A stretch of DNA of 64,000 nucleotides from Escherichia coli (GTDB lineage: Bacteria > Pseudomonadota > Gammaproteobacteria > Enterobacterales > Enterobacteriaceae): assembly GCF_036507355.1 (NCBI RefSeq), contig NZ_AP027877.1; one strand, written 5' to 3'. The notes beneath the pieces are model-generated. The model did not search any database, was not told the DNA's origin, and was given only the letters and a program-made list of their open reading frames with translations. The position numbers and the translations under genes were made by a program. Shown here one piece after another: positions 29,611-33,279 of the stretch; within the stretch, counting starts at the first letter, position 1, and every line of letters starts with the position of its first letter.

Positions 29611-29666
29611 ACCTTACCTCATCAATCGCTTGTCGTTATATGTTGTGTTGTGCACATCTATCCGTT

Positions 29667-29690
29667 TAGACGTCCAGATGTAAAGATGAA
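29667..29690 (-). promoter_or_regulatory. tandem MetJ boxes (metF operator)
   Basis: AGACGTCC AGATGTAA AGATGAAG: three 8-bp repeats resembling the AGACGTCT metbox consensus, upstream of metF. Confidence 0.6.
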
Positions 29691-30026
29691 GGAAAAGCCG
29701 AAGGGCGTCAACCGAAAAATGACCAATGATGGTGAGGAAAAATCAGGGAAGATGAATTTTCTTCATCTGTATATGGGAGTAGATAGGTTCTCTCGCATTA
29801 TCGCGTCGTGAAGTAATGAATAAATGCTTAAGCCATCGGCTGGAAATTTATTTAAATAAGAGTTAATTAATATTCACGACGGTGTTAGCTGAACACTTAT
29901 TTAAATAAAACAAATAGATACCATAATTTGCATTCATTACTGCATGTTTATTATTTGAACTACTTCAAACTATTAATAATTTTTCAAAAATTATGTTGCA
30001 GAGCAATTATGTATCCCCCACGATAA

Positions 30027-30054
30027 GTAGAACGTTCTACTAGAACGTTCTACT
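30027..30054. promoter_or_regulatory. tandem palindromic operator candidates GTAGAACGTTCTAC x2
   Basis: Two adjacent copies of a 14-bp palindrome with central AACGTT (LacI-family operator style) about 55-80 bp upstream of the PTS gene; coordinates +/-1. Confidence 0.6.
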
Positions 30055-30108
30055 TATACAAAAAAGACTAATTCGCGCAGCTTTATGCGCTATTCGGGGG
30101 AAATCAGC

Positions 30109-31434
30109 ATGAGTCTGATGTCGAGTTTCGTGAAGTCACTTTCTAAATTATCGATGATTGGTCGCGCCCTAATGCTACCAATTTCGCTTCTGCCTGCCGC
30201 GGGGTTGTTACTCGCGTTCGGCGATAAATTCCATTTGCCGTTGATGATGAATGCGGGCGGCATTATTTTTGATAACTTGCCGATGCTTTTTGCTATCGGT
30301 TCCGCCGTAGGGCTGGCTTCTGAATCGGGAATTGCGGCGTTATCCGCAGCCGTTTCCGTTTTTGTCACCAATATCACCATCAGCACCGTACTTAGCATTA
30401 CGCCAGAAATGGCCGGGCAAGGCGGCAAATACGCGATGGTGGTGGGGATCCCAACACTGCAAATGGGCGTTTTTGGCGGCCTGATATGCGGGATTCTGGC
30501 GGCGTGGTGTTACAACCGTTTTCATACAATGCAATTGCCAGAATTCCTTGGTTTTTTCTCCGGAAAACGCTTTGTGGCTATCGCGACGGCTTTTCTCTCC
30601 TTCATTCTTGGCTTGTCACTGCCTTATGTCTGGCAACACATTCAGTCAGGAATCGATGCGTTATCGGTTATCGTTAATGGTAACAACCAGGCAGCATCAA
30701 CCTTTATTTTTGGTGTAACTGAACGGGCGCTCATTCCGCTTGGCCTGCACCACATCTGGTATCCATCGTTTTGGTATTCTTTTGGGGATTACACTACCCA
30801 TGCCGGGCAAATGATTCACGGCGATCAGACGATTTGGTTCAAGATGTTGGAAGAAGGGGTGAAATCATTTAGCAGCGACAGTTATCATGACGCTGGTAAA
30901 TTTATGCAAGGTGAATTCCCACTGATGCTGTTTGCCCTGCCTGCGGCGTGCCTGGCGATGTATCTGCTGCATGCACATATTGCCAAATCCTTCTCTGCGG
31001 GGCTTATTGACTATATTTCGTTTGGTATCCTGCCATCCTTTAATGGCTACGAAACCAACTTCCTGAGCGCCATTATCGTCGGCGTGCCAATGGCGGTGAT
31101 CTACTACTTCACCTTCCGCTTTGTTATTCGTCGTTTTGATGTAAAAACGCCTGGTCGCACCGAAACTACGGTTAGCGCTAATGATAAATCCGATGACGAG
31201 CTGGCAACAGAAATCATCACGCTGCTTGGCGGTCAGCAAAACGTTAAATCGGTAGGTTCCTGCATCACGCGTTTACGTCTGGAAGTCTCTGATAAAGAAG
31301 CGGTGGATCAGGATGGTCTGAATAATATTGGCGCCCGTGGCGTGGTTTTTGTCGGCGATAACGGCATTCAGGTAATTTTTGGCGCGCGAGCGCAATTTAT
31401 CGCGCAAACCATGTCGACGATGATCGGTAAATAG
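30109..31434 (+). CDS. PTS EIICB component, glucose/maltose family
   Basis: EIIC domain with FGVTERALIPLGLHHIWY motif and C-terminal EIIB with CITRLR phosphocysteine motif; start at internal ATG with GGGGGA SD (track ORF starts 30085). Confidence 0.85.
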   Translation: MSLMSSFVKSLSKLSMIGRALMLPISLLPAAGLLLAFGDKFHLPLMMNAGGIIFDNLPMLFAIGSAVGLASESGIAALSAAVSVFVTNITISTVLSITPEMAGQGGKYAMVVGIPTLQMGVFGGLICGILAAWCYNRFHTMQLPEFLGFFSGKRFVAIATAFLSFILGLSLPYVWQHIQSGIDALSVIVNGNNQAASTFIFGVTERALIPLGLHHIWYPSFWYSFGDYTTHAGQMIHGDQTIWFKMLEEGVKSFSSDSYHDAGKFMQGEFPLMLFALPAACLAMYLLHAHIAKSFSAGLIDYISFGILPSFNGYETNFLSAIIVGVPMAVIYYFTFRFVIRRFDVKTPGRTETTVSANDKSDDELATEIITLLGGQQNVKSVGSCITRLRLEVSDKEAVDQDGLNNIGARGVVFVGDNGIQVIFGARAQFIAQTMSTMIGK

Positions 31435-31515
31435 CCTTAAGATTACTCGATGTCAGAGGTTCTGGTCCCTGACCAGAACCTTCTTGCTATTTAAAGAATC
31501 AACGTTGTTCAGGGA

Positions 31516-32538
31516 GTGAGTTTGAAGAAAGTCAGCATAATTGATGTTGCTAAAAGAGCCGGAGTTTCCGTCTCTACCGTGTCGCTAGTGCTGCGCCAGA
31601 AAGGGAAAATCTCAGAGGCGACCATCGGGAAAGTTCATGCTGCTATTGACGAACTGGGCTACGTGCATAATGTTGCCGCCGCCAATTTACGTTCCCACAC
31701 TTCAAATCTTATCGGACTGATTTTACGTGATTTTAGCGATAGCTTTTCCATCAAAGTGATGGCTAGCATTGTTCAGGAACTGGAAGCCAAGGGCTATATG
31801 GTATTCCTTGGGCAACCACAGAACGAACATGAACATCTTGAACGTTGTTTACTTTCCTTCAAGCAACAAGGTGTTGCCGGAGTGATTTATCTGGCTTCCG
31901 ATGCGCATCGTGAAACCCTACCCACACTAATCCGCCAGTGTTCGCTTCCCCTTGTCGTCGCGTCACAAACGCCCATCAAAGATGAGTGCAACCTGGTGTT
32001 GCGTGACAACCAGCAGGCAGCAAGCCTTGCCACACGTTATTTAATTGAGCGCGGCCATCGTTACATTGCCTATCTCGGTGGCAGAGAAAGCGATCTTATC
32101 CGTCAGCAGCGACTGGTTGGTTTTCGCCAGACCCTGGCAAAATTTGGCATTGCCTGCCGTGACGAGTTCACGCCAGCCTGTGACGATGACACCTGGGCCG
32201 CCAGCATGGCAACGCGCCAGTTGCTGGAAAATAACAACGCCATTACCGCCCTGCTCTGCCATTCGCCCGACGCTATGATTGGCGGTATCAACGGCATACA
32301 TCAGGTGGGGCGCACCGTTGGGAAAGACGTCTTTCTGACCCAGCAGGTAGCATTAATTGGTTTTGAAGATATGTTGCATATCAACCTGACCTCTCCTGTT
32401 TTCACCTATGTATCTTCCGCCAGTGAAGAAACCGGACGCCAGGCAGCGACCCTGATGATTCGCAAATTAAAAGACCAGGAATTGCAAACCCAAAGAATTG
32501 CGCTTTCCGGGGAACTGGTGGTGCGGGAATCGGCGTAA
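31516..32538 (+). CDS. LacI-family transcriptional regulator (MalI-like)
   Basis: N-terminal HTH DVAKRAGVSVSTVSLVL and periplasmic-binding-protein-like effector domain; GTG/TTG start. Confidence 0.85.
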   Translation: MSLKKVSIIDVAKRAGVSVSTVSLVLRQKGKISEATIGKVHAAIDELGYVHNVAAANLRSHTSNLIGLILRDFSDSFSIKVMASIVQELEAKGYMVFLGQPQNEHEHLERCLLSFKQQGVAGVIYLASDAHRETLPTLIRQCSLPLVVASQTPIKDECNLVLRDNQQAASLATRYLIERGHRYIAYLGGRESDLIRQQRLVGFRQTLAKFGIACRDEFTPACDDDTWAASMATRQLLENNNAITALLCHSPDAMIGGINGIHQVGRTVGKDVFLTQQVALIGFEDMLHINLTSPVFTYVSSASEETGRQAATLMIRKLKDQELQTQRIALSGELVVRESA

Positions 32539-32611
32539 TACACATGCCGAATGAGATGTACGTCGACATCGTCATCCGGCAATAAGGTGTAAACCAACTC
32601 AATAACTACTT

Positions 32612-33124
32612 TTATTTGATATCTTTCACGCGCATACCGTTGAGCTGTTCATCCGTGATGGCGTTACCCGCTTTGAAGTAATCAACCACGGCGTGATAAA
32701 CGTAATAACCGCCCGTTGTGTTGCGCGCTTTCCCCTCGATAAATGCGGTAAAGCCATCACCGCCATCAGCAAGGAAACTCTGAGTAGCAATATGGTAAAC
32801 CGTCGCATCTTCAATCGGTTTGCCATTTAGAGTCAACGTGATTACGCGCTGACCAACCGGCTTACTGCTGTCGTACTTCATTTCCAGGCCTTTCGATACC
32901 TGTAAAACGCCATTACTTAAACTTGCGCCGTGTTCCATCAAACTGCGTAATTGTTTCCCCGAGAGATCCATCGTCACCAGTTCGTTGGGGAACGGGAAGG
33001 TACTGATGACGCCGCCCATCGTAATCGCCCCTGCGGGGATCTCATTGCTAATACCGCCAGAGTTGGTTAACGCCAATTGGGTATTTTTACCCGCCGCTAC
33101 CAATAAAACCGTTAGATGGTATGT
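32612..33124 (-). pseudogene. 3' remnant of a 5'-nucleotidase / cyclic-nucleotide phosphodiesterase (C-terminal domain only)
   Basis: Open frame covers only a C-terminal substrate-binding-like domain; in-frame stop immediately upstream, no metallophosphatase domain. Confidence 0.55.
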
Positions 33125-33279
33125 TCATTAACGGGCGGAAATAGCAACAAAGCCAAAATACTCTCTTTAGCAACCAGCAGAGAATTTATCTACTGGCTAC
33201 ATAAACAGGCAGAATTTACTCACAGCGCCCCGCTTTCCGCAGGGCGCGTTACGCAAATACTGCTTTCTCTGGCCCAGGA

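Follow-up and report, generated by a model that had tools for sequence, protein, structure and literature searches.

A probably decaying accessory phosphotransferase region between metF and metL in the Escherichia coli chromosome

The metF and metL genes are adjacent in Escherichia coli K-12, where a spacer of 348 bp separates them. In this study, we analysed a stretch of 64,000 nucleotides from the E. coli contig NZ_AP027877.1 (the window), in which 3,669 bp lie between the same two genes. The gap carries a gene for a glucose-family EIICB transporter of the sugar phosphotransferase system (PTS), a gene for a MalI-like repressor of the LacI family, and the stubs of two further genes. In other respects, the window is ordinary chromosome of the species, with 99.3% identity to typical strains over 36-61 kb, and the gene order sthA ... 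katG-metF / metL-metB-metJ ... fieF is that of K-12 in reversed orientation. A preliminary description, made from the sequence alone, had placed about 3.7 kb between metF and metL and had recognised there a glucose-family EIICB, a LacI-family regulator and a 3' remnant of a 5'-nucleotidase gene. Its coordinates were exact, its gene content was borne out by domain E-values far beyond chance, and the EIICB-regulator pair was absent from K-12, as it had supposed. The features of the locus are as follows.

28720-29610, minus strand: metF, the conserved core gene of the left flank; open reading frame (ORF) with 98.5-98.7% identity to E. coli metF regions, annotated as metF in E. coli PT62 (locus L001) and in K-12.
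29611-29756, no strand: region upstream of metF in common with K-12; the first 146 nt of the K-12 spacer align here at 99.3% identity.
29757-30026, plus strand: AT-rich leader/promoter region of the cassette, GC about 38%, common to the Escherichia islands L087, L094 and L103.
30027-30053, plus strand: abutting palindromes O1 GTAGAACGTTCTAC (30027-30040) and O2 CTAGAACGTTCTAC (30040-30053), predicted repressor sites, with no further match in the 64 kb (0.12 matches expected by chance).
30109-31434, plus strand: glucose-family PTS EIICB gene with an in-frame internal deletion of 174 nt (441 aa instead of 499), from domain matches and alignment; predicted to be non-functional.
30953-30964, plus strand: deletion junction, the sole remaining copy of a 12-nt direct repeat TGGCGATGTATC, from overlapping BLAST segments and comparison with L094.
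31456-31482, plus strand: inter-gene stem-loop with a 12-bp stem, then a T-rich tract; terminator- or attenuator-like by hairpin prediction.
31522-32538, plus strand: intact gene for a MalI-like LacI-family repressor of 338 aa with a TTG start (NF007449, PF00356, PF00532).
32612-33107, minus strand: 3' remnant (about 165 codons) of a UshA-like metallophosphatase/5'-nucleotidase gene, with PF02872 only; aligns to L001 6768-7263.
33102-33107, no strand: junction of a deletion of about 2.1 kb with AAA microhomology; L001 7264-9372 is absent from the window, and the junction is the same against L007 and L103.
33105-33316, plus strand: 3' tail (last ~211 nt) of a lost gene for a 376-aa hypothetical protein; aligns to L001 9373-9584, the end of the coding sequence 8454-9584.
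33280-35712, minus strand: metL, the right flank; ORF that diverges from K-12 more strongly than the window does elsewhere.

The variable region starts at 29757. When the K-12 metL-metF spacer was examined for remnants of the island, only the 146 nt beside metF aligned; the other 201 nt were unrelated to the island and resembled a repetitive extragenic palindromic (REP) element in appearance. The empty state of K-12 is therefore not informative as to which state is ancestral and which derived. The ORF list of the 3,669-bp gap held no hydrolase or lyase gene, and an Rfam scan of 28500-34000 gave no RNA family at the gathering threshold.

The EIICB gene was assigned the start codon ATG 30109; in its orthologs, the protein opens with MSL and a GGGGG Shine-Dalgarno sequence is conserved ahead of the start. 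A further in-frame ATG, upstream at 30085, was rejected because its product was absent from the protein collection, in which the product of 30109 was present, and because the orthologs begin with MSL. The window protein has an EIIC domain (PF02378, E=6.8e-58) followed by an EIIB domain (PF00367, E=1.3e-12), the architecture expected of an EIICB, and it keeps the invariant phosphorylatable Cys of CITRLR, the equivalent of C421 in PtsG. Alignment with the 499-aa orthologs showed that 58 residues are missing as one block (AMYHEAHTKNKK...GITEPVEF...GLSYM). The lost block aligns to PtsG 267-324 and takes in the GITEP motif together with G295, T297 and E298; the motif is found in the intact copies of L001, L094, L052 and L082 and is deleted in the window copy. 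Cryo-electron microscopy structures of PtsG have shown that glucose is hydrogen-bonded mainly by T297 and E298 and that E298 holds OH-6, the group that becomes phosphorylated (PMC11393339). It has also been reported that, across the glucose family, neither transport nor phosphorylation can do without the GITEP glutamate (PMC12900739). Because the 58 residues with GITEP and the glucose ligands G295, T297 and E298 are lost, the window transporter is almost certainly dead. By homology, the gene descends from the glucose family and is predicted not to be a functional member of it. The preliminary description had taken it for a working gene, a claim overturned by the 174-nt in-frame deletion and the loss of GITEP.

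An intact sister allele, L094, is 99.0-99.5% identical in DNA and contains the 12-mer TGGCGATGTATC twice, 174 nt apart. By this comparison, the 174-nt loss bears the mark of slippage, or of illegitimate recombination, across short direct repeats. Repeats of this kind can also collapse in assemblies, and an assembly or sequencing artefact was therefore weighed; nothing specific to this locus pointed to one. The identical 441-aa product and junction were recovered from several sources, namely a complete genome of 4.64 Mb, further NCBI assemblies, Logan assemblies built from separate runs, and metagenome contigs at ENA. An artefact is scarcely conceivable.

We also considered whether the 441-aa protein is still useful to the cell, as a shortened transporter or as a membrane-anchored EIIB that serves as a phosphoryl sink or sensor and is kept with the repressor for regulation. 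The EIIB domain of PtsG tethers Mlc, which offers an analogy for a regulatory role. The deletion is in frame, the N-terminal scaffold region (equivalent to transmembrane helices 1-5) and the EIIB domain with its CITRLR Cys are intact, and so are the operators, the Shine-Dalgarno sequence and the regulator; moreover, the exact 441-aa allele was found in at least 8 independent samples. However, a repeat-mediated deletion is expected to be in frame one time in three. The deleted allele is confined to near-identical loci (L088, L089) that are 99.98-99.99% identical to the window and therefore represent one lineage, and since this lineage is near-clonal, the persistence of the allele says little about selection. 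The 441-aa form was otherwise absent among the 120 closest homologs listed (467-500 aa), and the deleted allele occurred in none of the 5,426 complete E. coli genomes searched. In addition, loss of the segment equivalent to PtsG 267-324 is expected to disrupt folding of the transport domain (PMC11393339). A retained function of the shortened protein is thus highly improbable.

To place the cassette among its relatives, one genome per species was scanned, which gave 80 related loci with 87-97% EIICB protein identity. They include loci of Kluyvera, Enterobacter, Citrobacter, Klebsiella spallanzanii, Leclercia, Lelliottia, Kosakonia, Atlantibacter, Cedecea, Buttiauxella, Pantoea and others, and span dozens of enterobacterial genera. 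The 499-aa form of EIICB was conserved in 80/80 loci, and a MalI-like regulator lay directly downstream of it in every one. In 61/80 loci, folD was upstream and cysS, ppiB and a gene for a YbcI-like protein were downstream; the metF-metL setting was found in 9/80, namely in E. whittamii, in seven Kluyvera or Kluyvera-like loci and in Klebsiella spallanzanii. No glycosidase, deacetylase, deaminase or EIIA gene was a conserved neighbour in the 80 loci. It had been noted earlier that no catabolic gene follows the regulator, which is correct for the window, and the absent hydrolase had been presented as an oddity of this locus, which it is not. Since all 80 loci show the same pair without a catabolic partner, the missing hydrolase is, on this comparison, the normal design of a two-gene cassette rather than a defect here.

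We then compared the EIICB with characterised families; model scores are those of an intact ortholog against curated cut-offs unless the window copy is named. The best NCBIfam model was that of the glucose-specific IIBC, TIGR02002, at 561.6 bits, below its cut-off of 591.8 (window copy, 440.6). The E. coli-type PtsG model NF008301 gave 415.6 against 647 (window copy, 306.4), the MalX models NF007509 and TIGR02004 gave 314.3 against 665 and 321.7 against 632, and the NagE models TIGR01998 and NF007608 gave 437.1 against 553.2 and 338.1 against 1010; all of these scores fell short. Membership in NagE is further contradicted by the lack of an EIIA domain in the EIICB and of nag genes nearby in the 80 loci. 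Protein identity was 39% to PtsG, 39% to NagE and 33% to MalX. Among solved structures, the best match was PtsG (IICB-Glc; PDB 8QSR/8QST, 9HNP, 9SRX; E=1e-101), which has the same EIIC-EIIB architecture. The intact EIICB differs from PtsG by an extra loop of about 12 residues (TIWFKMLEEGVK...), and while PtsG is under the control of Mlc, the cassette has a LacI-type repressor instead. The highest-scoring group, TIGR02002, comprises Firmicute-type PtsG/GlcA/GlcB proteins, and the EIICB here has no fused EIIA.

The regulator belongs to the LacI/GalR family, with PF00356 (E=1.1e-17), PF00532 (E=3.9e-33) and, upstream of the EIICB gene, a conserved palindromic operator with a central CG to which it is predicted to bind. 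The exact protein is also encoded beside intact EIICB genes in L087 and L094 and is catalogued mainly from 'unclassified Escherichia' strains. O1 and O2 together form a perfect inverted repeat of 35 nt. Across 78 upstream regions (76 other loci, L001 and the window), the 14-mer GTAGAACGTTCTAC occurred in 71 exact copies; each region had at least one copy with no more than two symmetry mismatches, at -62 to -92 from the start codon, and about a third had a second, abutting copy of the palindrome. Further upstream in the window, the AT-rich leader contains an inverted repeat at 29847-29909, TTTATTTAAATAAGAGTT / AACACTTATTTAAATAAA, with 18-nt arms and a 27-nt spacer. Between the EIICB and regulator genes, a strong GC-rich hairpin was predicted in most loci folded, and its sequence differs completely between genera. 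A consensus scan of the island for sigma-70 promoters and terminators gave counts not above shuffled expectation, yet the inter-gene hairpin was kept as a feature because it recurs across genera. In the simplest reading of these sequences, it would be a partial terminator that keeps repressor expression low.

The malI-malX-malY system of K-12 resembles this cassette in several respects. It likewise joins a LacI-family repressor with a glucose-family EIICB that has no EIIA of its own, and its operators are palindromes with the same AACGTT core. The preliminary description had called the helix-turn-helix (HTH) of the regulator most similar to that of MalI, and this part stands: the recognition stretch VSVSTVSLVL is identical in the two proteins, and the best NCBIfam model of the regulator was MalI, NF007449, at 325.2 bits against a cut-off of 310. 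NF007449 is a 'subfamily' model, and passing it does not establish the same function. These similarities, with the PGAP/RefSeq name 'MalI', would fit a true second copy of the malI-malX maltose/glucose system whose regulator controls the mal regulon. However, the regulator is only 37% identical to K-12 MalI and is a paralog, not MalI itself. In the malI-malX spacer of K-12, the MalI operators have the sequence ATAAAACGTTTTAT, against GTAGAACGTTCTAC here, so that the arms differ. The EIICB is as distant from MalX as its identity and its 314 bits against 665 indicate. Here the two genes run in tandem and a hairpin separates them, whereas malI and malX are divergent and accompanied by malY, which is absent here; K-12 malI adjoins hdhA and uidR, and the locus of the cassette differs. 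The cassette departs from malI-malX in sequence identity, operator, gene arrangement and partner genes, and its EIICB scores below the cut-offs of the MalX, PtsG and NagE models; it is best described, from its genes and operators, as working like malI-malX without being a member of that system. We give very little credence to a second malI-malX copy.

The second part of the gap holds the two gene stubs. Intact islands have four genes between metF and metL, encoding the EIICB, the regulator, a 517-aa metallophosphatase/5'-nucleotidase and the 376-aa hypothetical protein; they were found in E. coli PT62 (L001), in E. whittamii (L007) and in the contigs L103-L105, which encode a regulator of the same 90%-identity cluster under the NCBI name 'MULTISPECIES [Escherichia]'. 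The intact nucleotidase of L001 has both PF00149 and PF02872. In the window, an ORF of 163 codons at 32612-33103 (minus strand) has the C-terminal 5'-nucleotidase domain PF02872 only (E=1.4e-33) and no PF00149, so that the fragment does not qualify as a nucleotidase of this type. The remnant is 92.8% identical to the 3' end of the UshA-like gap gene and keeps only its C-terminal substrate-binding domain, since the deletion took the gene start together with the catalytic metallophosphatase domain. In intact islands, the 376-aa hypothetical gene (L001 8454-9584) converges on metL and overlaps its 3' end; in the window, the hypothetical gene has left a residual ORF at 33116-33316 within its tail. 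The 376-aa protein has no Pfam domain and gave only a sub-threshold match to an IS1-type zinc finger. The gene remnant had been read earlier as a possible deletion scar, and the ~2.1 kb missing relative to L001, L007 and L103 bears this out.

Two related loci bear on the order of events. L087 has an intact 499-aa EIICB, with the spacing between regulator and metL already shortened as in the window, and is 97-98% identical over the blocks compared and 99.0-99.7% within the cassette. L094 also has an intact 499-aa EIICB, and its contig extends as far as the beginning of the nucleotidase remnant. Because these two loci combine an intact EIICB with the shortened spacing or the nucleotidase remnant, the ~2.1-kb deletion is placed, on this comparison, before the EIICB lesion.

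The preliminary description had proposed that the metL-metF junction be compared across Escherichia and relatives, and this showed a variable site with a rare cassette. The EIICB-regulator cassette was present in 8 of 5,426 complete E. coli genomes, in all cases at about 87% DNA identity to the window copy. The nucleotidase and the 376-aa hypothetical gene were present as a pair, with or without the cassette, in 1,844 of these genomes, about a third. K-12 has neither module, and in an Escherichia sp. lineage (L101) the cassette abuts metL with no trace of the nucleotidase. The gap has also been listed as the variable genomic region GR31 of strain BEN2908 in a comparison of extraintestinal pathogenic E. 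coli (ExPEC) (PMC12928451). From these comparisons, the metF-metL gap appears as a mosaic that takes six or more different states in Escherichia. As a separate observation, in E. coli GF4-3 (L003, 7818-11585) the cassette is followed, instead of by metL, by genes for a pyridoxal phosphate (PLP)-dependent aminotransferase-family (MocR-like) protein and an alanine racemase and by a serine hydroxymethyltransferase pseudogene.

These distributions raise the question of how the region reached the strain. It may have been acquired recently, as a genomic island or by recombination import, rather than being an ancestral Escherichia feature in the course of loss; the stubs would then be damage at or soon after import from a divergent Escherichia. 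The rarity of the cassette in complete E. coli genomes, its GC of ~47-49% against 53-58% in the flanks, the provenance of the exact regulator protein and the listing of the gap as GR31 in ExPEC genomes are in favour of acquisition. Furthermore, the part of metL beside the island (33-35 kb) is 95.8-96.1% identical to K-12, against ~98-99% elsewhere, and 97.3-98.3% identical to the island-bearing Escherichia locus L087, and sequence further out is nearer to K-12. Because metL beside the island is diverged from K-12 and nearer to L087, the alignment suggests that the island and part of metL entered the lineage by homologous recombination from a divergent Escherichia. On the other hand, no integrase, transposase or insertion sequence (IS) element, tRNA or border direct repeat was found in 29400-33500, and a plasmid search with the cassette gave no match. 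The same metF-metL site is occupied in E. whittamii, the seven Kluyvera or Kluyvera-like loci and Klebsiella spallanzanii, which fits vertical inheritance or homologous replacement better than site-specific insertion. An origin as a mobile, integrative island was rejected because of these missing hallmarks and because the GC is only moderately low. Recent acquisition is a tentative alternative, less well supported than the main reading of the locus given below; it concerns the route into the strain and is compatible with decay.

We consider it quite probable that the 3.7 kb are the decaying remnant of an accessory metF-metL region of some Escherichia strains, which in its intact form had two modules and whose sugar-PTS cassette later suffered a broken EIICB. 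The intact region consists of two independent modules, one of EIICB, stem-loop and MalI-like repressor, the other of the UshA-like 5'-nucleotidase and the 376-aa hypothetical protein. In the cassette, the repressor would bind one or two copies of the 14-bp palindrome GTAGAACGTTCTAC upstream of the EIICB gene and would be released by a sugar-derived inducer. The EIICB would be phosphorylated by the general EIIA-Glc (Crr) and would take up and phosphorylate a glucose-like hexose, whose 6-phosphate may enter central metabolism through housekeeping enzymes. No dedicated hydrolase would be attached because the 6-phosphate would go directly into central metabolism. In the window, as the sequence comparisons show directly, the deletion of ~2.1 kb first took most of the hypothetical gene and the portion of the nucleotidase gene that encodes the catalytic domain, and a later slippage-type deletion of 174 nt between the 12-nt direct repeats took the 58 EIIC residues including GITEP. 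Of the intact region, the window keeps a transporter gene that is almost certainly dead, the stubs of two genes and, still intact, an orphan repressor and its operators. This is, as far as the comparisons indicate, ordinary gene decay at a known variable site.

As for the substrate, the PtsG glucose ligands E202, R203, H211, H212, G295, T297, E298, F337 and S338 are conserved in intact copies (9 of the 11 positions tabulated). From this conservation and the best family model, the intact EIICB most likely takes a glucose-like hexose, with glucose or glucosamine as the best candidates. It presumably depends on EIIA-Glc (Crr) because, like PtsG and MalX, it is an EIICB without an EIIA domain. JGI names orthologs either 'glucose EIICBA or EIICB' or 'D-glucosamine-specific IIC'. 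PtsG of Bacillus subtilis, a member of the TIGR02002 group, likewise has Tyr and Met at the positions equivalent to N215 and K257 of E. coli PtsG. In the same species, the gamAP operon is under a GntR-type repressor. The glucosamine transporter GamP is encoded in this operon with the deaminase GamA, as a published report states (PMC3648570). Neither a deaminase gene nor a GntR-type regulator is present in the cassette.

Several points weigh against the functional part of this account. The sugar-contact positions N215Y and K257M differ from PtsG, and K257M matches NagE; the EIICB score lies just below the TIGR02002 cut-off; and public sources disagree on the orthologs, which are given as specific for glucose, N-acetylglucosamine (GlcNAc) or glucosamine. 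A characterised ortholog of the EIICB or of the regulator, or an operon with a known substrate, matters the preliminary description had wished to see checked, was not found in the literature searched, nor was a regulon for the regulator. The use of Crr is deduced by analogy with PtsG and MalX, the identity of the inducer is an inference, and the loss of function of the 441-aa product is predicted from homology, while the deletion keeps the reading frame and several isolates retain the allele. The promoter scan at chance level counts here as well. A different substrate may also be considered, in which the intact cassette would be an uncharacterised enterobacterial PTS that serves not glucose, GlcNAc or maltose but glucosamine or another C2-modified hexose, as K257M and N215Y at the sugar-contact positions hint. 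The MalI-like repressor would then define a small new regulon, and the window allele would be a natural knockout with an orphan repressor. This possibility we regard as unlikely.

Other parts of the window also differ from K-12. At 1-1505, where K-12 has the sthA-fabR spacer, an ORF for an M20-type amidohydrolase (129-1295, minus strand; TIGR01891, 358.7 bits) lies beside sthA; this gene is accessory and absent from the matching K-12 region. In the priA region (39001-41000), identity to K-12 falls to 94.7-96.2%, against ~98-99% around it, which by its appearance is a recombination patch. Between rraA and zapB, about 1.5 kb (46701-48228) are absent from K-12 and contain the tandem ORFs 46751-47437 and 47470-48186 (plus strand; 228 and 238 aa), whose hydrophobic N-termini are alike, as are their C-terminal ends (...MLSA...); neither matches any NCBIfam family. 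Collinearity with K-12 ends at 60736, within the cpxQ small RNA / cpxP 3' region beside fieF, and cpxP was not seen in the remaining sequence (60737-64000). This part contains a 170-aa ORF without a family match (60819-61331, minus strand) and an IS30-family transposase gene (61423-62424, plus strand; NF033563, 308.9 bits).

The two-gene cassette is conserved in its intact form in genera that include Enterobacter, Kluyvera, Citrobacter, Pantoea and Cronobacter, and no study of it was found in the literature. At NCBI, the 441-aa product is named 'PTS sugar transporter' and 'PTS transporter subunit EIIC', while the paralogous regulator carries the PGAP name 'MalI'; a metabolic or regulon model that relied on such names would be wrong for this strain. 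With its two successive lesions, the metF-metL gap offers what appears to be a small and clear case of genes lost step by step through microhomology-mediated deletion.

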